Origin: Pseudomonadota bacterium
GTDB taxonomy: Bacteria; Bdellovibrionota; Bdellovibrionia; Bdellovibrionales; Bdellovibrionaceae
Reading direction: 5' to 3'
NCBI GenBank assembly: GCA_041178425.1
Contig: JBEGVH010000010.1
Coordinates: 32,001 to 96,000 of the forward strand
DNA: 64,000 bases
Part shown: positions 1-63,490 of the stretch, piece after piece
Layout of the letters: each line of letters begins with the position of its first letter
Numbering within the stretch: position 1 is the stretch's first letter
Position numbers and translations under genes: made by a program
Notes under the pieces: generated by a model
The model's input: only the letters and a program-made list of their open reading frames with translations
Told to the model about the DNA's origin: nothing
Databases searched by the model: none

Positions 1-798
1 GTCTTCGACCGTGCTCGGAGCACCACTCATGCTTGTCACGAATTCATCGCTAAGCTCAGGAAGAACTTTTTTACGGAGCTTTTTGAGAGTAACTTCGAAG
101 TCTACAGCCTTACCTGAAAGATCCGCATGGTAATTTTCTGGGAACTTGAGGTTAAGAGTCTTCGTTTGCCCAACTGTCATTCCAATAATTCCGTCTTCAA
201 AACCCTCGATAAAGCTCTTAGTACCCAATTCAAGAGGGTGATCCGTGCCCTCACCTCGATCGAGAGGTTTTCCATCAATGATTCCTTTAAAATCAATGAC
301 AGCAATGTCACCTTTTTGAGCAGGTCGATTTTCAGTAACATCTTCAGACGACGCTCTCGAGTTTCTTATGTTCTCCAAAATAGATTCCATCTCTTTTGGA
401 TCCACTGAGAAAATTTCTTTCTCAACTTCAAGTCCCTCGTATGTCTTAAGCTCAATTTCTGGCCTTACCTCGAAATTTGCACTAAAAGTAAAATCTTTGC
501 CATCGATGACTTCGTCGAATTCGAATTCGGGATAGTCAACAGGCTCCAATTTATGCTCTTGCAAACCTTTAGAGAATCCAACCTTAAGAAGCTCTTGAGT
601 AACGTCATTCTTTACCCGATCGGCGTAGAGATTTTTAATCATTGCGATAGGTGCTTTTCCCTTACGAAAGCCTTTTAATTCAACTTGCTTCTGCACGCCA
701 TGATAGAAATCGTTCAAGGTTGATGTTACAAGCGCCGCGGGGACTTCGATATTTAATTTACGTCCTAAAGTGGACACTTTCTCTAATTGAGTTTTCAT
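1..798 (-). CDS. tig: Trigger factor (3' end truncated by the window edge; absent from the ORF track)
   Basis: Manual translation from ATG at 798 (AAGGAG RBS upstream) gives MKTQLEKVSTLGRKLNIEVP...ELKGFRKGKAP, with the GFRxGxxP ribosome-binding signature; an FKBP-like segment follows. Confidence 0.95.
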   Translation of the reverse strand, partial: MKTQLEKVSTLGRKLNIEVPAALVTSTLNDFYHGVQKQVELKGFRKGKAPIAMIKNLYADRVKNDVTQELLKVGFSKGLQEHKLEPVDYPEFEFDEVIDGKDFTFSANFEVRPEIELKTYEGLEVEKEIFSVDPKEMESILENIRNSRASSEDVTENRPAQKGDIAVIDFKGIIDGKPLDRGEGTDHPLELGTKSFIEGFEDGIIGMTVGQTKTLNLKFPENYHADLSGKAVDFEVTLKKLRKKVLPELSDEFVTSMSGAPSTVED

Positions 799-2856: not shown

Positions 2857-4028
2857 TTTTCTTTTGCTGCGTATTTTTTTTGACGGTCTTCCTCTCAATA
2901 GGATGTTCCACGCTCAATGTTTTTGGACTTAATTCCCTAATGGGTTTCGATACCGCAACTCACTACGATGAAGACGAAACTAAACTTCGAATTTGGGAAG
3001 CCGAAATTGAAAAAAAGAACTATCAAACTGTCACTCAAGAGATTGTAGCCTTTCTAAAACATAACCCGGCCTCCCAACACTGGTATGCTATCCTCTTTAC
3101 CTTAGGCAGAGCAAAGGAAGGTATGGAGGATTGGCAAGGGGCTATCGAAAGTTATCGTGAAATCATACAACGATCTACAGATAAACAAATGGAATTTGTG
3201 GCATTAGCCTCTTACCGTATTGCCTATTGCAATGAAGTTCTTCTCGAAAATGAAAAAGCCCTGGCCGCTTTAAGTGATGCTTATAAACTCAAGCAGTATT
3301 TGCCCATCGAAATCAGTTTGGCAGAAATTCCTGCAAGGATTGCCTCAATTCACTCCAGAATGAATCAAGGCCATTTGGCCGATTCCTACACTACCCGAGC
3401 AGAAAAAGGACTGACAAAGCTAAAAGCAATCAAAAAAGGGTCGGACCCAGAATGGGTCAGTCGAACTCTCGTTCGGATGGGAAGCATTTCACTTAGCCAA
3501 ATCGATTCAGAAAGTTTTCGTCAAAGCCTTTCAACGCTTAACCGAAACCAAAAATTCCTTCTTCAGGCGATTGAAGTTAATCATCCAGCCTGGGCGCCTG
3601 CGGCTCAGTCTATGCTACTAAACACTTACACTAATTTATGGCAGTTCATTGAAAATTTCAGGCTTGAAAGCACTTATGATTGGGAAACTGATTTGGTCTC
3701 TCAATCTCAGCAAAAATCCTTCTTTTTAGCAACCTACCTTGAATCATTGGAAAGACTAAAAAGCTATAGACCGCCCGAAGAAACTTCGGTCTACGTAAAA
3801 AGTGCACCCCTCTTTGAGAAACTAAGTATTCTAGAATCCAAGGCTTCATATTTATTGAACTCTGAGATGCTAAAGAAACCATGGAACCTTGATTCAACCT
3901 TGGCCTCTGAGGTCTCCCAGACGCCAGCGGGAGCATCAACTAATTTGAAAGTCCAAACGTTTGAAGCTGATAGCCGTCCAGAGTATATCCCTACGCAGCT
4001 TCCTAAAAAGAAAGTACCAACGAGGTAA
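2829..4028 (+). CDS. TPR-repeat lipoprotein
   Basis: Hydrophobic N-terminus with lipobox LSIGC; TPR-like helices (LGRAKEGMEDWQGAIESY; IAYCNEVLLENEKALAAL). Confidence 0.65.
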   Translation: MDRTKSANLVFFCCVFFLTVFLSIGCSTLNVFGLNSLMGFDTATHYDEDETKLRIWEAEIEKKNYQTVTQEIVAFLKHNPASQHWYAILFTLGRAKEGMEDWQGAIESYREIIQRSTDKQMEFVALASYRIAYCNEVLLENEKALAALSDAYKLKQYLPIEISLAEIPARIASIHSRMNQGHLADSYTTRAEKGLTKLKAIKKGSDPEWVSRTLVRMGSISLSQIDSESFRQSLSTLNRNQKFLLQAIEVNHPAWAPAAQSMLLNTYTNLWQFIENFRLESTYDWETDLVSQSQQKSFFLATYLESLERLKSYRPPEETSVYVKSAPLFEKLSILESKASYLLNSEMLKKPWNLDSTLASEVSQTPAGASTNLKVQTFEADSRPEYIPTQLPKKKVPTR

Positions 4029-55701: not shown

Positions 55702-56478
55702 CTAATCCTTGGCCACCGGATTCGAGCTTAAGATAGCCCTCATCATCAGTGCTCCCGAAATGACCAACATAATCGCAATCCAAAAAGAAACACCAAAACC
55801 TAAAATTAAAGGTCCCCGAGGATCGTCGCGAAGAAGTTCCATAATCATTCGATTGAAACCGTGACCAACAATCCACAGGCAAAAGATAACGCCGGGTCGA
55901 ATTCGGCTTTCTCCTCGTTTCTCAACCAGGAGTAGAACGAGCACCAAAAAAAACTCCAGCCCTGCCGTAATTATTTGAGTAGGGTATCGTCCGAAGGACT
56001 CACCAGAAAATTCTATGTTATGAAAATGAACTCCAAAAATAGAATCAGTTTGTTTTCCGTAGCAACAGCCTTGAAAAAAGCATGCCCAACGGCCCATCGA
56101 ATAGCCCAATCCAATCAGGGGAGCAAAAAGATCCAGCCAGGGCAGTAGAGGTAACCTTTTTTTCTTCAACCATAAAATACCAACACCGATGCCCGCAAGT
56201 ATTCCGGCTAAAAAAACGAATCCACCCTCCCACAATTTGAATATAAAACTAGGATGCCTAAAGTAAAAATCTGGATACTCATATAAAACATGAAATAATC
56301 GGGCACCAATCAAGCCGATGAAAGAACTAAAAAGCCCCACATCTAAAGCTGTTCTTACATCAAGGCCCAGCGACTCGCTTCGAAAACGCAACCATAGAAG
56401 TAACAAGCAAAAGTCGAAGCTAATGACCACGAAGTACGTTGGAATCGACCAAACTCCGAACTCGATTATGGGATACAT
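55702..56478 (-). CDS. lgt: Prolipoprotein diacylglyceryl transferase
   Basis: IGARLFHV, WEGG, GRWACFFQGCCYG, YPTQ and ELLRDD. Confidence 0.9.
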   Translation of the reverse strand: MYPIIEFGVWSIPTYFVVISFDFCLLLLWLRFRSESLGLDVRTALDVGLFSSFIGLIGARLFHVLYEYPDFYFRHPSFIFKLWEGGFVFLAGILAGIGVGILWLKKKRLPLLPWLDLFAPLIGLGYSMGRWACFFQGCCYGKQTDSIFGVHFHNIEFSGESFGRYPTQIITAGLEFFLVLVLLLVEKRGESRIRPGVIFCLWIVGHGFNRMIMELLRDDPRGPLILGFGVSFWIAIMLVISGALMMRAILSSNPVAKD

Positions 56479-56490
56479 ATCGATGGAGTC

Positions 56491-56997
56491 CTAAGATTTT
56501 GCTGGTTGTTCAGACTGACTTTTACCTTCAAGCCACATGAGCACCATCAGAATCATTACACCAACGACGATGGCACAGTCGGCGATATTAAACGCAGGCC
56601 AATTATATTTATGGTACAAATGGAAATCGAGAAAATCGATGACGTAACGGAGACGTAAACGATCGATGTAATTTCCGACGGCTCCACCAAAAATGCTACT
56701 CAAAGCGAAAATCTGCCAGCGATCCTTATCGGCCACACCTTTCAGAATCACTAAAATAATAATCATCGCTACCGGAGGAACAGTTAAAAAGAAGGCTTCT
56801 CTGAAATCAGGGTGAGACTCAGCCAAAAAACCAAAGGCTGCACCTGGATTCCGAACGTAAGTGAGATTGAAAAAGTTTTCGATGACTGAAACGGATTCAC
56901 CCAGTTGAAAACGCGTGTGCACATATACTTTAGTAAGCTGATCTAATGCGACGGCAAAAGTAGACCAAGCGATCAAAAAAACATATTTAAATTTCAT
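56491..56997 (-). CDS. lspA: Lipoprotein signal peptidase II
   Basis: DQLTK, RNPGAAFG, GGAVGNYIDR, VIDF and PAFNIAD; catalytic Asp residues intact. Confidence 0.96.
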   Translation of the reverse strand: MKFKYVFLIAWSTFAVALDQLTKVYVHTRFQLGESVSVIENFFNLTYVRNPGAAFGFLAESHPDFREAFFLTVPPVAMIIILVILKGVADKDRWQIFALSSIFGGAVGNYIDRLRLRYVIDFLDFHLYHKYNWPAFNIADCAIVVGVMILMVLMWLEGKSQSEQPAKS

Positions 56998-57064
56998 GTT
57001 GAGCCTCAATATTCTCAGACTCTCTCAAAGTTCTCAAAAAAGTTCAAAGGAAACAGCAAGGTAA

Positions 57065-57688
57065 TTAAAATTGAGAGCGCATTTTTTGATATCCCATAGC
57101 CACAAGCAATCGAATCGCTTCATGCTCCGAGCTTAAATTGAAATGATTTTTAACTTCCTGAATCATTGTCCAACTTCGAGCATCCACCAAATTACGGAGA
57201 TCCGTAATTGTAGGGCTCGAGCTCATGGAGGCGCTGAAAAGTGGGAGACTGGGATCGTTTAGCGGATTTGGCACTCCCCCCAAATAGGAGGCATTGACCA
57301 TGGAACTTGAAGAAGAAACCGGCTGCGGAGAGTTGGAAGAGCTATTTTGAGCGACGAATTGAGAATTTGTAAATCCACCTGGCTGCATGGTTGCAGCTGC
57401 AGTATTGCTGGGTGGATATTTTGTATTCCCCCCCCCAGTTTTATTGGCACTTGGAGATTCTTCAAGATCGCCCATCATACTCGCAAGATTTTTCAGCTCG
57501 GATTTAAAGCCCTGGAGGTTCATTCTACTCAAAGATGTATCACCATGCATTTGGGCGCGCGTATAGAGAGCCACCAACGCTTCGGGAGACTTCGCCAACT
57601 CCTGCACATTGGCGGGCTGTGACCTCAGCCAATTATAGGCCTGAATCAATGTTTCTTTTGTATAAGCCTGTGGTGGCAAATGCATCAT
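57065..57688 (-). CDS. Hypothetical protein with a low-complexity linker and a possible C-terminal ribbon-helix-helix
   Basis: 207-aa ORF; Ser/Pro-rich middle; C-terminal DARSWTMIQEVKNHFNLSSEHEAIRLLV. Confidence 0.6.
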   Translation of the reverse strand: MMHLPPQAYTKETLIQAYNWLRSQPANVQELAKSPEALVALYTRAQMHGDTSLSRMNLQGFKSELKNLASMMGDLEESPSANKTGGGNTKYPPSNTAAATMQPGGFTNSQFVAQNSSSNSPQPVSSSSSMVNASYLGGVPNPLNDPSLPLFSASMSSSPTITDLRNLVDARSWTMIQEVKNHFNLSSEHEAIRLLVAMGYQKMRSQF

Positions 57689-59571: not shown

Positions 59572-61449
59572 CTAGGTTAAAACAGGCAGCTCGATCGTAA
59601 ACGTTGAGCCTTTATTTTCGGCACTTATCGCTGATATTTTACCTTTATGAAGCTCCACAAAATATTTTGATAAGTAGAGTCCCAATCCCGAGCCTTTAAC
59701 AGGAGAGTTCTTAGCCTTTCGGCTTCGAAAGAATTTCATGAAAAGGCGAGGCATTTCGTCATCTGGGATGCCGATACCCTGATCAGAAACTTGAATAAGA
59801 ACGCGGTTGTCTTTTTCCTCTGTTCTAATCTTAATTTTTGAATCATTGGGGCTGTACTTGATAGCGTTCTCAATCAAATTGAGAAGCACTTGGCGGATAA
59901 GATCTGCGTCCAATCTCAAGCTAAAAAGTGGTTCCAGCTCTTTTACTATTTTTATTTTTTTCTCTTTGGCCAAATAATCTGTCTTTTGTAGAACTTCTTC
60001 GATGAGAGCATTGATATCTTTGCTCTTTAAATTTAACTGAACCCCTTCACTCTCAATCCGACTGAAGTTCAAAATTGAACTAATAAACCCAAGCAAATCA
60101 TCCGTCGATTTTTGAATCGATTTCAACGCTTGCTTTTGATCATCACTCAAAGGATTTTTATCCCTGAGGACAATTTCTAGCATGCCACTAATTCTTGCTA
60201 GAGGAGTCTTTAGATCATGTGACATCATTCCAATAAAGTTTGATTTAAGCTCCTCCACTTGAGTGAGTAGCTTATTTTTGTGATAGAGCTCCCAACTGCG
60301 ACGATTCTCAACAATAAGGCGATAGGGGATCAAAAAATAGTAGGCCACAAAGATTCCCAGGAGGGGCTGTGCCATGTTCACCCAGTAACCATAGGGCCAA
60401 AATGCAACAAATGTTGCTACCGCAAATAGTAAAACTGACAAGCCAAGAACCATGAGGCCTTTTACTGGAGTCATCGACAAAACGACTTCGACGGTCAGCA
60501 GAACCAAAGTGACAAGCAACAAGATATTAAGCCATTGCGGAACCTTTTGCACACCCGAATTGTGAATCATGGTATTCAACATATTGGCATGAGCCTCGGT
60601 GACTGTCATGGCAGTGACATCGCGGGAGTAAGAGGTGCGGATGTATTCGTGAGTGCTTTCACCCAACTCCGTCCCGATAAAAATGACCTTATTGGTGAAT
60701 TGACCGCTTTCAACCTTACTATTTATGACATCAATAAAATTTGATCGAGAAAAGGATCCCGTGGGAGCCATGTCGATATAGGATTGCTCGCTATCGTAGA
60801 AGTCGAACTTTCCATGAACGGCCTTAATTGAACCTCGCTCGGGAAACAACTGACCTGCCAAGTAGGGATGAAACATCGTTGTACCCTGATAACTTAACAT
60901 CATTCGACGAGTTACACCATCTTGAGCGAGAACTTTAGTATCTGATGTGATCGGACCTGACATAACATGAATTTTATTGAATGGCTCAGGTAAATCTAAT
61001 TTACCTTGTTCGCCTTTCATAGCTAACTCATTAGTAACAAAGTAGACATTTTGCAGACTATCAATCACTGCAACGAAAGCCGCCTTTTCCTCTTCTGTAC
61101 CAACGAGTTCTGCTGGATTCACAACGTAAACAACGGCCTTGGGACCTTCCTCTTTGAGCTTCGAAAGAAGAGCCGTATGATCGGCAATAGTGGGCACTCT
61201 TTTAAGGGCTTCTACAGACGACGGTTCGATCAAGACCAGTTCAATCAAGCCGGTGGTCAGAGGTGCTGATCGAATCACTGTTCGAACGTCATAAAGATAC
61301 GATTCAAAAAAATCGAGGGGTAAGAAAATTATACCGACAGCTAACGCTACGGCCATAAGCCATCGAACGAGTCTGGTCGAAAGTTTCTCTTTAGCATCCA
61401 TACTAATATTTTCAACGCGTCCTTGTGTATTTTCCAAAGTATTACCCAT
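59572..61449 (-). CDS. CHASE2-domain sensor histidine kinase
   Basis: N-terminal TM; CHASE2-like region (DGVTRR, KVIFIG, EAHANMLN); three TMs; MSHDLKTPL H-box; NLIENAIKYS, DQGIGI and GSGLGL. Confidence 0.9.
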   Translation of the reverse strand: MGNTLENTQGRVENISMDAKEKLSTRLVRWLMAVALAVGIIFLPLDFFESYLYDVRTVIRSAPLTTGLIELVLIEPSSVEALKRVPTIADHTALLSKLKEEGPKAVVYVVNPAELVGTEEEKAAFVAVIDSLQNVYFVTNELAMKGEQGKLDLPEPFNKIHVMSGPITSDTKVLAQDGVTRRMMLSYQGTTMFHPYLAGQLFPERGSIKAVHGKFDFYDSEQSYIDMAPTGSFSRSNFIDVINSKVESGQFTNKVIFIGTELGESTHEYIRTSYSRDVTAMTVTEAHANMLNTMIHNSGVQKVPQWLNILLLVTLVLLTVEVVLSMTPVKGLMVLGLSVLLFAVATFVAFWPYGYWVNMAQPLLGIFVAYYFLIPYRLIVENRRSWELYHKNKLLTQVEELKSNFIGMMSHDLKTPLARISGMLEIVLRDKNPLSDDQKQALKSIQKSTDDLLGFISSILNFSRIESEGVQLNLKSKDINALIEEVLQKTDYLAKEKKIKIVKELEPLFSLRLDADLIRQVLLNLIENAIKYSPNDSKIKIRTEEKDNRVLIQVSDQGIGIPDDEMPRLFMKFFRSRKAKNSPVKGSGLGLYLSKYFVELHKGKISAISAENKGSTFTIELPVLT

Positions 61450-61481
61450 TCTTAGGTTTACTTGAAAAATAACTAAGAGGC

Positions 61482-61643
61482 CTAATCTCGGTCAATGATA
61501 TTCCCTGTAGGAATGCAACCCAGGCCTTCGGTCGTTGGGATGAAAGTCTTAGCACTCTCTCCTGATTTGATAACCCGACTCGATGAAGGGGTAGCTTTTT
61601 TCTTGCTCGTCAATTTTGGTTTACAAATCTTAATATGCTTCAC
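61482..61643 (-). CDS. Putative RiPP precursor peptide, 53 aa (MKHIKICKPKLTSKKKATPSSSRVIKSGESAKTFIPTTEGLGCIPTGNIIDRD)
   Basis: AGGAG RBS (61652-61656) 8 nt before GTG at 61643; 14-nt overlap with the radical SAM 3' end; ranthipeptide-type MKHIKI leader. The ORF track overextends this ORF to 61805. Confidence 0.7.
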   Translation of the reverse strand: MKHIKICKPKLTSKKKATPSSSRVIKSGESAKTFIPTTEGLGCIPTGNIIDRD

Positions 61644-62922
61644 CGTTAAAACTCCTGTATTTTTCATAGTAAATAAATAGTGTTGAGATTGTATTTTTAG
61701 TTCTATCGCAAAAGTCCTGATCGACACGATCTTTGGAATGGGTACCCCGACTATGGATATACTGACACCCTCCGCCACATAGGAAGCGCGCCCAACAGCT
61801 TCCACAGTTCCGACTTTGCAGTTGAGACTGAGCGTATTTTGGGAGATTCACCAAAACACTCTCTCTCTCCTGACCTAAGCTTAATTGCCTATCACTGATC
61901 TCCCAAGGACAACTGAACAAAGAGCCCCTTGCATCCATCGAGAGCATGGACTTTCCGGCACCGCAGAAATTTTCCACCCGCACCTGATCGTCTAATCGCT
62001 GGAAGATCGAATCAAAATGACGAATCTTGCGTAACTCACACTCTCCGCCAATAGCATCGGCCAATGCAGCGACCTCCGACAATTCTTTTGCAAAACTTTT
62101 ACTGGCTTCCGAATCGAAATCCGTATGAGAGAAGTTCAGTTCATAAAAATCGAAGTTCCATCGGCGAAAATAATCATAAGTCTGAACAATCTCGAGATGA
62201 TCCTTATGAAAAACTGCAGACAGTCCTACGCTTGGAAGCTGTTCTTTTATTAATGAGAGTTGTTTAAGGCCAGCCTCGAGGATAGAACTTGAGGGAGTGC
62301 CAGCCTTGGTTGGACGAAACTTATCTTGAACGTGCGGTGGACCATCTACGCTGACTGTGACTGCTATTTTAAACTTTATCAAGAGGGCTAAAACAGAAAC
62401 GTCTAAAAGACGCGTCCCATTCGTCACTACAGCAAACCGAACATTGATTTTATTAGTGGCCCCAAAATCTTGGGCCCATTGCGCCACTTGGCTAATAGTC
62501 TCAGGATAGAGGAGAGGCTCCCCTCCTAAGAAGTTTATTTGAAAACTTGTGCCCTCTTCACATTGGCGGATCAGCCACTCTAATTGCGGAAGTCCTTTTT
62601 TTAAATCAAACTTAACTTGAGGGTCGCCATAGGTGCCGTCACCCCCCGCCGCACAATAGGTGCATTTTAAATTACAGAGTTGGGTTGCATTTACGGTGAT
62701 GGTTCGAATTTTTTGAGCAAGCGTAGAGGTTTTGCAGCTCTCACTAACAGATTCAGACCAAGACTTTAGTTCAGTTAATTCTTCAGATTGCTTACCCGCT
62801 TCAAAGGAATCGACAAGCGAAGGGCTCAAGCGAGCCACCTCAAGATTCACATTGTGAAACCCTACAAATTCATTTGGCCCCGTTTTAAAGATGGAAACAT
62901 TTCCGAATTGAGCTGGTGTCAT
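61630..62922 (-). CDS. Radical SAM/SPASM peptide maturase (CteB/QhpD-like)
   Basis: CNLKCTYC, FLGGEPLL, VTNG and SVDG; SPASM CGAG...C and CGSCWARFLCGGGC...C; about 70-aa N-terminal extension consistent with an RRE. Confidence 0.88.
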   Translation of the reverse strand: MTPAQFGNVSIFKTGPNEFVGFHNVNLEVARLSPSLVDSFEAGKQSEELTELKSWSESVSESCKTSTLAQKIRTITVNATQLCNLKCTYCAAGGDGTYGDPQVKFDLKKGLPQLEWLIRQCEEGTSFQINFLGGEPLLYPETISQVAQWAQDFGATNKINVRFAVVTNGTRLLDVSVLALLIKFKIAVTVSVDGPPHVQDKFRPTKAGTPSSSILEAGLKQLSLIKEQLPSVGLSAVFHKDHLEIVQTYDYFRRWNFDFYELNFSHTDFDSEASKSFAKELSEVAALADAIGGECELRKIRHFDSIFQRLDDQVRVENFCGAGKSMLSMDARGSLFSCPWEISDRQLSLGQERESVLVNLPKYAQSQLQSRNCGSCWARFLCGGGCQYIHSRGTHSKDRVDQDFCDRTKNTISTLFIYYEKYRSFNGEAY

Positions 62923-62965
62923 TTTGACTTCGAATTCCCCTTCTTCATTGCTGCTTTACCAGAAT

Positions 62966-62981
62966 TGCAAAAAGAGTGCCT
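62966..62981 (-). promoter_or_regulatory. Sigma54 -24/-12 promoter of the radical SAM operon
   Basis: AGGCACTCTTTTTGCA has the exact GG-N10-GC spacing and matches TGGCAC-N5-TTGCW, 44 nt upstream of the ATG. Confidence 0.75.
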
Positions 62982-63039
62982 CGCATTTTAGAACAATTGG
63001 CTCCGGGGACTGAGAATATGACCATCAGCCCTGTCTTCA

Positions 63040-63057
63040 TTTCACGAGCCCATGAAA
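63040..63057. promoter_or_regulatory. Candidate enhancer (UAS) palindrome
   Basis: TTTCACG-AGCC-CATGAAA (one mismatch), about 60-75 nt upstream of the -24 element. Confidence 0.35.
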
Positions 63058-63074
63058 GTATTATCATACAACGA

Positions 63075-63095
63075 AGGGGCAATAGGATTGCCCCT
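63075..63095 (-). terminator. GC-rich hairpin after the upstream gene
   Basis: AGGGGCAAT-AGG-ATTGCCCCT just past the stop codon at 63101; weak U tract. Confidence 0.5.
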
Positions 63096-63100
63096 GAGTG

Positions 63101-63490
63101 TTAATTCATCTTGGTTTTGACTTTAAAGCTCGCCGAGGAAGAGCAGACATGCCCCTCTGCGCCTGAGGACACACAAGACATCTTACCGCAGTCCATAGAG
63201 ATGATTTTATTGTCTTTATTAAGCTCTTTTAGTTCCTTTTTCCAATCGGCACAGGCTTTTTTCCAAGAGCCGCGGGCTTCCTTAATTAAAACACTCGGAT
63301 CGCCTTCGATCTCTGCGCTTCCGCTGACGATCTCGAACAATCTGTCTCCCTTGGCGACTGAATCGCCCTTTCGAATAGAGATTGTCGTCTCTTCGTTCGT
63401 TGGTATATCGGTTACGGCCGTCTTTTGCGCCAAAGAAAGAGTCGCATTTAAGCTGATTGCAACACAAATCCAAACACTTATTTTTCTCAT
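63101..63490 (-). CDS. Hypothetical secreted protein with four Cys in the mature part
   Basis: AGGAG RBS; signal peptide ending SLA; follows the PBP gene. Confidence 0.7.
   Translation of the reverse strand: MRKISVWICVAISLNATLSLAQKTAVTDIPTNEETTISIRKGDSVAKGDRLFEIVSGSAEIEGDPSVLIKEARGSWKKACADWKKELKELNKDNKIISMDCGKMSCVSSGAEGHVCSSSASFKVKTKMN

Follow-up and report, generated by a model that had tools for sequence, protein, structure and literature searches.

The stretch of DNA analysed here (hereafter referred to as the window) comprises 64,000 nucleotides (nt) of contig JBEGVH010000010.1 (positions 32,001 to 96,000 of the forward strand; assembly GCA_041178425.1), from a Bdellovibrio relative of the order Bdellovibrionales and the family Bdellovibrionaceae/Pseudobdellovibrionaceae, in agreement with the likely predatory bacterium proposed in a preliminary description made from the sequence alone. 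On its minus strand, behind a sigma-54-type promoter-like element, lies a conserved row of genes encoding a radical S-adenosylmethionine (SAM) enzyme with a SPASM domain, a peptide of 53 amino acids (aa), a CHASE2 sensor histidine kinase, an NtrC-type regulator and a 207-aa protein (Table 1). Sequence comparisons and modelling support a translated peptide that is co-inherited with a CteB-like enzyme and is predicted to bind it through both its leader and its core. On balance, and with due reserve, we read the locus as encoding a peptide made by ribosomes and modified after translation (RiPP) with a single core cysteine and a dedicated maturase, which would form a thioether or make some other cysteine-centred change, the whole being expressed under two-component control.

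Table 1. Positions of the genes, motifs and signals of the locus in the window (−, minus strand).
Feature	Position	Strand	Evidence or remark
Precursor peptide gene, 53 aa plus stop	61482..61643	−	Conservation, codon pattern, complex model
AGGAG ribosome-binding site	61652..61656	−	8 nt 5' of the peptide GTG; direct reading of the sequence
Radical SAM/SPASM peptide maturase (predicted), 430 aa	61630..62922	−	Family scans, alignment of 109 homologues, fold
N-domain resembling a RiPP recognition element (RRE), residues ~1-62	62737-62922	−	Full-chain superposition on CteB, leader model
CX3CX2C motif	62653-62676	−	Alignment
Seven-Cys SPASM	61708-61965	−	Alignment
Sigma-54-type −24/−12 promoter-like element, AGGCAC-N5-TTGCA	62966..62981	−	About 45 nt upstream of the radical SAM start codon
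CHASE2 sensor histidine kinase, 625 aa	59572..61449	−	Pfam CHASE2 (6e-21), HisKA, HATPase_c
NtrC-type response regulator / sigma-54 enhancer-binding protein, 498 aa	57894..59390	−	Response_reg, Sigma54_activat (9e-72), HTH_8
207-aa protein, last conserved member of the row	57065..57688	−	Follows the regulator in many loci

The peptide open reading frame (ORF) starts with a GTG codon at 61643, ends with a TAG codon (61482-61484) and overlaps the gene for the enzyme, whose TAA stop codon lies at 61632-61630, by 14 nt. The 53 codons, the GTG start, the ribosome-binding site and the overlap, all of them described previously, were reproduced from the sequence, and the mechanical ORF list does indeed open this frame at 61805, inside the enzyme gene (107 aa). 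Same-genus relatives have an ATG at the equivalent codon, behind GGAGG, which supports the GTG start, and purine-rich stretches (GGAG, AGGA or GAGG) lie 5' of the peptide start in most of 73 relatives. The leader motif K-H-I-K-I-C-K-P corresponds to residues 2-9 (61617-61640) and the core motif G-L-G-C-I-P to residues 40-45 (61509-61526), with the invariant Cys43 at 61515-61517. The cysteines of the window peptide are C7 and C43, and the residue numbers given earlier for C7, E39, C43, T46, N48 and D51 are correct. The gene is present as a single copy in the source genome. It had been presented as hidden, which is true of the ORF list for the window but not of the databases, in which the copies of B. 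bacteriovorus strains HD100, 109J and Tiberius are already deposited as hypothetical proteins.

Conservation was assessed at 100 loci, 20 from the genomes of relatives and 80 from a collection of species representatives, these two genome sets overlapping. A peptide ORF was found downstream of the orthologous enzyme in 95 of these loci; four of the others were cut by contig ends (L053, L065, L095 and L098) and the fifth (L101) carried a distant homologue. The small ORF is, therefore, a genuine conserved partner of the radical SAM/SPASM enzyme, as had been supposed. A pattern combining the leader with C-x-P gave 68 matches in the 26,602 six-frame fragments of the 100 loci, 66 of which lay directly 3' of the radical SAM gene and two elsewhere; a small ORF of this type is found beside the radical SAM gene more often than would be expected by chance. 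A profile built from the pattern matches recovered further peptides, and those of L011, L064, L067, L082, L084, L087 and L096 were added by eye. The resulting collection contained at least 73 distinct peptides, 71 of which were used for the leader logo and 72 for the core logo.

In the family pattern, the leader reads K-H-I-K-K-[VIL]-K-P and the core G-x-G-C-[IVL]-P. In the leader logo (n=71), an initial lysine was followed by the histidine (60 peptides), the isoleucine (64), a first lysine of the pair (65) and the second (58), then by [VIL], a lysine (46) and a proline (54). In the core logo, anchored on the cysteine (n=72), this cysteine was present in all 72 peptides, proline at +2 in 69 and I, V or L at +1 in 52, with glycine at −3 in 48 and at −1 in 36. 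Position +3 was occupied by V, T, L, I or S in 68 of the 72 peptides, and position +4 by G (28), R (13) or K (8). Exactly four residues followed the cysteine in 32/72 peptides, the tails spanning 3 to 20 residues. Exactly one cysteine was found in 66 of 73 peptides; C7 of the window peptide had rightly been placed in the leader, as it occupies a position taken by [VIL] in other genera, the cysteine being peculiar to the genus of the window. At the codon level, the fixed cysteine was encoded by TGC (44) or TGT (25), the proline by all four of its codons, the histidine by CAC or CAT, and the isoleucine by ATT, ATC or ATA. Codon positions 1 and 2 are thus fixed whereas position 3 varies, as expected for a translated ORF, and this pattern, together with the distribution of the pair, indicates that the small ORF is translated and that peptide and enzyme genes are inherited together across Bdellovibrionales.

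These data bear directly on the possibility that the small ORF does not encode a substrate at all, but instead serves the kinase gene for translational coupling or as an upstream regulatory ORF, or is open by chance. Its 14-nt overlap with the enzyme gene and its stop codon, 32 nt before the start of the kinase gene, would suit such a role. Nevertheless, the amino-acid motifs are maintained in at least 73 distinct peptides despite drift at the third codon position, the spacing to both flanking genes differs among loci, the pattern is almost absent elsewhere (2/68 matches), and the modelled binding to the enzyme, described below, is well above that of controls. We consider this explanation highly improbable.

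The peptide matched no known family. No family was found for the window peptide in NCBIfam or Pfam at E-values up to 0.1, or for ten relatives (NCBIfam) and seven relatives (Pfam) at E-values up to 10, apart from one chance-level CPL match, and the peptide profile gave no matches to Protein Data Bank (PDB) chains at E-values up to 10. The leader had been compared with that of the clostridial SCIFF precursors, which starts with MKHIK, with the proviso that the core was not of the SCIFF type. This distinction holds: TIGR03973, the six-Cys-in-45 family of ranthipeptide precursors, matched neither the window peptide (E-values up to 0.1) nor ten relatives (E-values up to 10), and most of the peptides have exactly one cysteine, as indicated above. 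A SCIFF family search yielded no match over the cut-off in the source genome and no real match in the control genomes, which hold no SCIFF carrier.

Some loci displayed specific features. Two tandem precursor genes lie 3' of the enzyme gene in L008 (2788-3057), with different cores (..GFGCVPTG.., with a long tail, and ..GVACVPQG..). The cores of L084, L085 and L096 lack the proline (..EC-R-I-L-N-S-L and ..EC-K-R-I-N-I-I), leaving the cysteine as the sole universal core residue. A metagenome bin labelled Streptomyces griseus (L067) contains a complete Bdellovibrio-type row of enzyme, peptide and kinase genes, on a contig that is probably mis-binned. The most distant homologue fetched, from Anaerolineae (L101, 27% identity), is followed by an ORF (3400-3500) that we take, by eye, to resemble a Nif11-type leader, which would fit the top NCBIfam match of the enzyme (see below). 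The genes for signal peptidase II (lspA) and prolipoprotein diacylglyceryl transferase (lgt) lie downstream of the operon on the same strand (55702..57009), and a reading of G-L-G-C as a lipobox was considered. It was rejected, as the peptide lacks a hydrophobic signal segment and this stretch reads GEGC, GDGC or GNGC in other genera; given the lack of a signal segment, no link between lspA or lgt and the peptide was found.

The CX3CX2C motif (C83-x3-C87-x2-C90) and the seven SPASM cysteines (C320, C338, C373, C376, C382, C386 and C405) that had been recognised in the enzyme are invariant in the alignment of 109 homologues. In the N-terminal extension, of about 70 residues, H23 and W55 are invariant and N26, L27, E28 and A30 nearly so. 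Pfam detects only the radical SAM core (Radical_SAM, 42.5 bits versus a cut-off of 29.5), and the enzyme remains under the cut-off of every curated family. The highest single NCBIfam score was that for the nif11-type family (TIGR04064; 159.1 bits over the N-terminal half, cut-off 518.7), followed by PapB (NF047865; 153.9 bits over the full length, cut-off 340), QhpD (TIGR03906; 122.9 bits, cut-off 453), the SCIFF maturase (TIGR03974; 102.5 bits, cut-off 425) and the anaerobic sulfatase-maturating enzyme (anSME, TIGR03942; 70.5 bits, cut-off 349.45). The ranking was the same for all 20 members scanned, the nearest curated families being PapB, nif11, QhpD, SCIFF and CcpM; among these members, PapB gave the best match (7.9e-56) and the SCIFF maturase reached an E-value of 4.2e-44 at best. 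All these families consist of thioether formers or peptide maturases.

Comparisons of structure and profile gave a more specific result. In the AlphaFold2 model of the whole chain (pLDDT 91.5), the barrel is preceded by four strands and two helices, formed by residues 4-57. CteB ranked first with Foldseek (TM-score 0.78) and, with VIA-align, chain 5wgg_A was superposed with a Z-score of 33.5 and a root-mean-square deviation (rmsd) of 3.0 over 393 residues, residues 7..423 of the model being aligned with residues 2..450 of the chain. The superpositions on ChlB (Z 29.4) and anSME (Z 28.6; rmsd 3.1 over 330 residues, model range 71..426) cover only residues 69-426. The N-domain is therefore superposed on the peptide-binding domain of CteB, in agreement with the three-part, CteB-like layout proposed earlier. 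CteB was also the top solved chain by sequence for the family profile (E-value of 1.3e-45, versus 4.4e-17 for anSME). The SPASM cysteines of the family align with those of CteB; a single cysteine occupies the first cluster-I position, as in CteB, the anSME residues Cys255 and Cys261 flanking this column, and a nearly invariant proline (Pro339) follows the third ligand at the place of anSME Asp277. In PMC6231123, the seven-Cys SPASM motif is defined for two auxiliary clusters, cluster I of anSME is described as fully ligated by Cys255, 261, 276 and 330, whereas that of CteB has an open site occupied by a cysteine of CteA, and the CteA leader is described as extending the sheet of the RRE, the leader-binding domain.

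The binding of the leader to the N-domain, which had been postulated by analogy, was modelled for a complex of enzyme and peptide including three 4Fe-4S clusters and SAM, with custom alignments. The complex obtained a score of 0.89, versus 0.32 for the best control; a score of 0.89 is reached by 116 of 157 solved complexes and by 2 of 215 mismatched pairs. The runs agreed in at least 43% of contacts, with a pLDDT of at least 44 for the partner. In this model, peptide residues 1-10 contact enzyme residues 21, 28-33, 35-36, 47-48, 51-52, 54-55 and 419-425, the leader forming a strand against the conserved N-domain strand 28-33 (the invariant FH..NLEVA region) and the helices of residues 35-55. 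Peptide residues 38-47 contact residues 74, 76, 130, 132, 166, 189, 235, 261-266, 301-326 (including 318-321), 339, 381-386 and 408, which places the G-x-G-C-x-P core inside the barrel, beside the SPASM cysteines. The model supports a CteB-like mode of binding of the peptide by the enzyme, although part of the complex score may reflect memory, as the CteB-CteA complex has been solved.

A plausible course of reaction can be proposed on this basis. The single invariant cysteine would be the reacting residue. As the enzyme has only seven SPASM cysteines, like CteB, auxiliary cluster I probably has an open iron, and this free iron would take the thiolate of the peptide cysteine. The 5'-deoxyadenosyl radical would then abstract a hydrogen atom from a nearby carbon, most likely within the three to four residues that follow the cysteine or at the conserved glycine at −3 or −1, and the product would be a small-ring thioether. 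In the absence of a conserved acceptor side chain, an alpha-carbon (sacti-type) link is more likely than a side-chain link. Likewise, given that many tails consist of four residues, position +3, Gly −3/−1 or an alpha-carbon is a likelier partner than an Asp, Glu or Asn side chain. The preliminary description had named E39, T46, N48 and D51 as candidate acceptors: of these, E39, N48 and D51 vary among the peptides, some half of which end four residues after the cysteine, and cannot act as general acceptors; position +3 alone, occupied here by T46 and by V, T, L, I or S elsewhere, provides a candidate of general scope.

The same lack of a conserved acceptor would also fit a change on the cysteine itself. 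The enzyme might oxidise this residue in the manner of anSME, to formylglycine or to a group derived from a thioaldehyde; the peptide would then bear an aldehyde rather than a cross-link. The sulfatase signature is C-x-P-x-R, which the peptide motif C-x-P-x-(R/K/G) resembles: the cysteine (72/72) and the proline at +2 (69/72) are the only near-invariant residues, and R or K is found at +4 in 21/72 peptides, often as the final residue. The match to anSME is also strong in fold (Z 28.6), and there is a match in sequence (4.4e-17). However, the commonest residue at +4 is G (28/72) rather than R or K, and the score for the anSME model (70.5 bits versus 349.45) is well below those for PapB, QhpD and SCIFF. 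Furthermore, one cysteine replaces the Cys255/Cys261 pair, giving seven auxiliary-cluster cysteines rather than eight, and the nearly invariant Pro339 stands in place of Asp277, the catalytic base of anSME. Finally, anSME has no leader-binding N-domain, whereas leader and N-domain are conserved together here. Oxidation of the cysteine is, in our view, decidedly unlikely.

A different type of radical chemistry would also be conceivable, such as epimerisation, the formation of a link of the carbon-carbon or ether type, or the trimming of the peptide to a small derived cofactor or metabolite, as for mycofactocin or pyrroloquinoline quinone (PQQ), with the cysteine serving only for recognition or cluster binding. 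The system is single-copy, housekeeping-like and nearly universal in one family (f1: 23/24, 26/26 and 12/12 genomes in three samples), a distribution unlike that of antibiotic clusters, which are sporadic. The core forms the very C-terminus of the peptide, with four residues after the cysteine in 32/72 peptides, there is no exporter or protease gene nearby, and the enzyme is under every curated cut-off. By contrast, the peptides have no conserved aromatic residue, Lys, Glu or Tyr of the kind used by the known SPASM enzymes forming carbon-carbon or ether links, the closest relatives by score form thioethers, and the conserved row includes no further tailoring enzymes. We regard such chemistry as rather unlikely, while giving it some weight.

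The peptide and enzyme genes are part of a larger conserved row, a context absent from the preliminary description. In 71 of 80 loci, the gene directly downstream of the peptide gene, with the same orientation, is that of the CHASE2 kinase. Seven of the nine loci without it are cut soon after the enzyme gene; the other two are L101 and L023, in which a kinase/regulator pair lies upstream on the opposite strand, beside a run of N. The NtrC-type activator gene follows that of the kinase in most of the loci that are long enough, and is usually followed by the gene for the 207-aa protein, which has no Pfam or NCBIfam family and the atlas neighbours of which are hypothetical proteins of Bdellovibrionota. 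The row of radical SAM, peptide, kinase, activator and 207-aa protein genes would be read from the sigma-54-type promoter. As this operon would encode its own sigma-54 activator, the most likely role of the modified peptide is that of an output of the CHASE2 two-component system, with positive feedback.

The promoter-like element differs by one mismatch from TGGCAC-N5-TTGC, a pattern which in its bare form is not enriched in the window (six found versus 3.0 expected). The strict pattern GGCAC-N5-TTGC was found in none of 75 upstream regions and a looser one in 28. The strict pattern was therefore replaced by a scored −24/−12 consensus with controls, and a score of at least 9/12 was reached in 54/75 upstream regions versus 16/439 control windows. 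The source genome has rpoN (452.9 bits). A GG-N10-GC element, RpoN and an activator, all predicted from sequence, thus give the row the features of a sigma-54-dependent operon. A scan of 61200..63300 for sigma-70 promoters and terminators found fewer sites than in shuffled sequences. A G+C-rich inverted repeat (GGGGCAAT..ATTGCCCC; 63076..63100, minus strand) is located directly past the stop codon of an upstream gene; it is terminator-like, would separate this gene from the radical SAM operon, and was not called by the simple scan because it has no T run. The upstream gene (63101..63490, minus strand) lies between a gene for a penicillin-binding protein and the radical SAM operon, and its 129-aa product has a signal-like segment at the N-terminus. 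This protein has no family match except for a weak one to an adhesin-lipoprotein family, and a counterpart was seen in only one other locus (L022).

RNA libraries were considered for a B. bacteriovorus-like relative (L028), with four runs from four studies. Contigs covered the radical SAM, peptide and kinase genes in all four runs. Two of these contigs (5,416 and 5,280 nt) begin at positions 4003 and 4001, at the ATG of the radical SAM gene; the −12 element (3980-3984) predicts a start a few nucleotides before this ATG. An adapter precedes one of the two contigs. This cover and the two coincident 5' ends provide a weak hint of transcription. One run yielded a 38-kb contig, suggesting DNA or read-through, and depth could not be used to rank the genes. 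In the same locus (3969-4003), the sigma-54-type element ends 17 nt before the ATG of the enzyme gene; this spacing and the contigs from two studies starting at the ATG suggest that the enzyme message may be leaderless, or nearly so.

The enzyme was found in 23 of 24 genomes of the same family in the sample of relatives and in 26 of 26 in a phylum-wide sample. It was present in 35 of the 251 genomes of this latter sample, all but one of which belonged to the same order, the exception being a partial match on a 1.1-kb contig. In an order-level sample of 81 genomes, in which the kinase was scored by its CHASE2 half, 31 genomes had the enzyme (f1, 12/12; f12, 12/12; f13, 2/2; f4, 1/2; f6, 3/12), which was absent from the eight other families of this sample, and 57 had the kinase. 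Enzyme and kinase occurred together in 31 genomes and were both missing from 24; 26 genomes had the kinase but not the enzyme, and none had the enzyme but not the kinase. The two-component pair is thus older and more widespread than the enzyme-peptide pair, which is inserted in front of the kinase pair and never kept without it. Eight loci with the kinase only keep the order PBP (penicillin-binding protein)..kinase-regulator and have no consistent peptide family; in some of them, the kinase gene is immediately preceded by a sigma-54-like element. Two loci without the radical SAM gene (L115 and L117) contain Lys-rich, Cys-less small ORFs within 200 nt upstream of the kinase gene, with a leader-like K-I-K-K or K-K-I-K stretch, that of L115 sitting behind a sigma-54-like element and AGGAG. 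These ORFs could be remnants of a lost peptide gene or chance frames.

This distribution is relevant to the possibility that the mature peptide is an exported autoinducer, sensed by the periplasmic CHASE2 domain and driving the sigma-54 promoter through the activator, a role compatible with any of the chemistries considered above. A Gram-negative predator would then have a peptide loop of the quorum or self-sensing type. Peptide, kinase and activator genes are found in one row in 71/80 loci, a sigma-54-type promoter fronts a row encoding its own activator, and the enzyme is never found without the kinase (31/31). However, the kinase orthologue is found without the enzyme and peptide in 26 of 57 kinase-bearing genomes; eight such loci have no consistent peptide, and the kinase must have another input there. 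In addition, the row includes no gene for an exporter or leader protease. The kinase may sense the peptide, but the 26 kinase-only genomes weaken this reading, and we consider the autoinducer role unlikely.

Several observations weigh against our interpretation of a cysteine-modified RiPP under two-component control. The modification of the peptide is itself a prediction from sequence and models. No acceptor residue is conserved, with V/T/L/I/S at +3, G/R/K at +4 and tails of 3 to 20 residues, and the C-x-P motif resembles that of sulfatases. The pLDDT of the partner in the complex model is under 50, and this model was built with our own alignments and may include memory of CteB-CteA. The N-domain folded alone (pLDDT 86) gave Z-scores below 4 against 48,161 chains (best 3.8), with RRE proteins tied with unrelated folds (6jx3_B, 3.5; CteB, 3.2; 5v1u_A, 2.9), and had no match to Pfam PqqD at E-values up to 10. 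The homology of this domain to RREs thus rests on the full-chain superposition and the modelled mode of binding. The RNA contigs, which come from a relative (L028), cannot establish that the genes are transcribed, from which strand, or as one transcript. In the order-level sample, 26 of 81 genomes have the kinase/regulator pair but no enzyme and the peptide is, therefore, not required for the pair to exist. Finally, the gene row contains no protease or exporter gene, in line with the earlier observation that no such gene adjoins the peptide/enzyme pair.

A full-text literature search, thin on subscription journals, retrieved no paper describing this system, although large surveys of radical SAM RiPPs may list the cluster, and nothing on the signal or regulon of a CHASE2/sigma-54 operon of this type. 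Radical SAM/SPASM RiPPs are already known as a kind; the single-Cys precursor family and its regulatory setting are new. Peptide maturases of the radical SAM/SPASM type are rich in new chemistry. The clade lies under all cut-offs and its precursors have a single cysteine in a very short, proline-containing core, so any product would be a new minimal scaffold, and a single-Cys system would provide a clean test case for the use of the open auxiliary-cluster site. The module is nearly universal in Bdellovibrionaceae and would provide a handle on signalling in predators studied as living antibiotics; B. bacteriovorus HD100, which is genetically tractable, carries the same genes, its peptide having the accession CAE78161.1. 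We can speculate, with little confidence, that these predators make a tiny peptide cyclised by the radical SAM enzyme, perhaps just the last five residues (the cysteine and four others), on an undescribed single-Cys thioether scaffold, that it serves for self-signalling via the CHASE2 kinase and sigma-54 activator, and that it possibly gates the predatory life cycle. If this were true, it would constitute a peptide autoinduction loop in a Gram-negative bacterium.

The agr and com systems, and streptide under the control of shp/rgg, are known peptide signalling systems with which this row can be compared. As in these systems, the genes for the peptide and its processing enzyme share a row with those for a kinase and a regulator, with a matching class of promoter in front. 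The row considered here differs in having a radical SAM maturase, a CHASE2 sensor, a sigma-54 activator, a Gram-negative host and no exporter, and in that some related families have the kinase pair but not the peptide.

Among the enzymes, anSME (PDB 4K36-4K39) shares the SPASM fold (Z 28.6) and has a substrate motif starting with C-x-P, but the window enzyme has seven cluster cysteines rather than eight and a proline rather than Asp277, and is predicted to have a domain for leader binding and a small peptide as its dedicated substrate. The nif11-like maturases (TIGR04064) differ in their leader, which is a Nif11 domain, whereas that of the window peptide is a short, basic K-H-I-K-K motif. PapB (freyrasin) and QhpD (the maturase of the gamma subunit of quinohemoprotein amine dehydrogenase) come after nif11 in the top three by NCBIfam score. 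Both form Cys thioethers, on substrates with several cysteines and Asp/Glu acceptors; the window peptide has one core cysteine and no conserved acidic residue, the enzyme is far under the cut-offs for both, and no amine dehydrogenase genes were found among the conserved neighbours.

The best match in both sequence and fold, N-domain included, is CteB, the ranthipeptide maturase that acts on the SCIFF peptide CteA in Clostridium thermocellum (PDB 5WGG and 5WHY). The two enzymes share the three-part layout, the seven-Cys SPASM and the single cysteine at the first cluster-I position. They are only 16-18% identical and the N-domain of the window enzyme is shorter, its 60 or so residues forming four strands and two helices. 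The precursor has one cysteine, as opposed to six in CteA-type peptides, and the genomic context is that of a two-component system with a sigma-54 promoter in a Gram-negative predator. SCIFF peptides are lineage-wide in clostridia, and the peptide family described here likewise has a lineage-wide, rather than sporadic, distribution. Its leader is modelled on the sheet of the N-domain, as described for CteA in PMC6231123.

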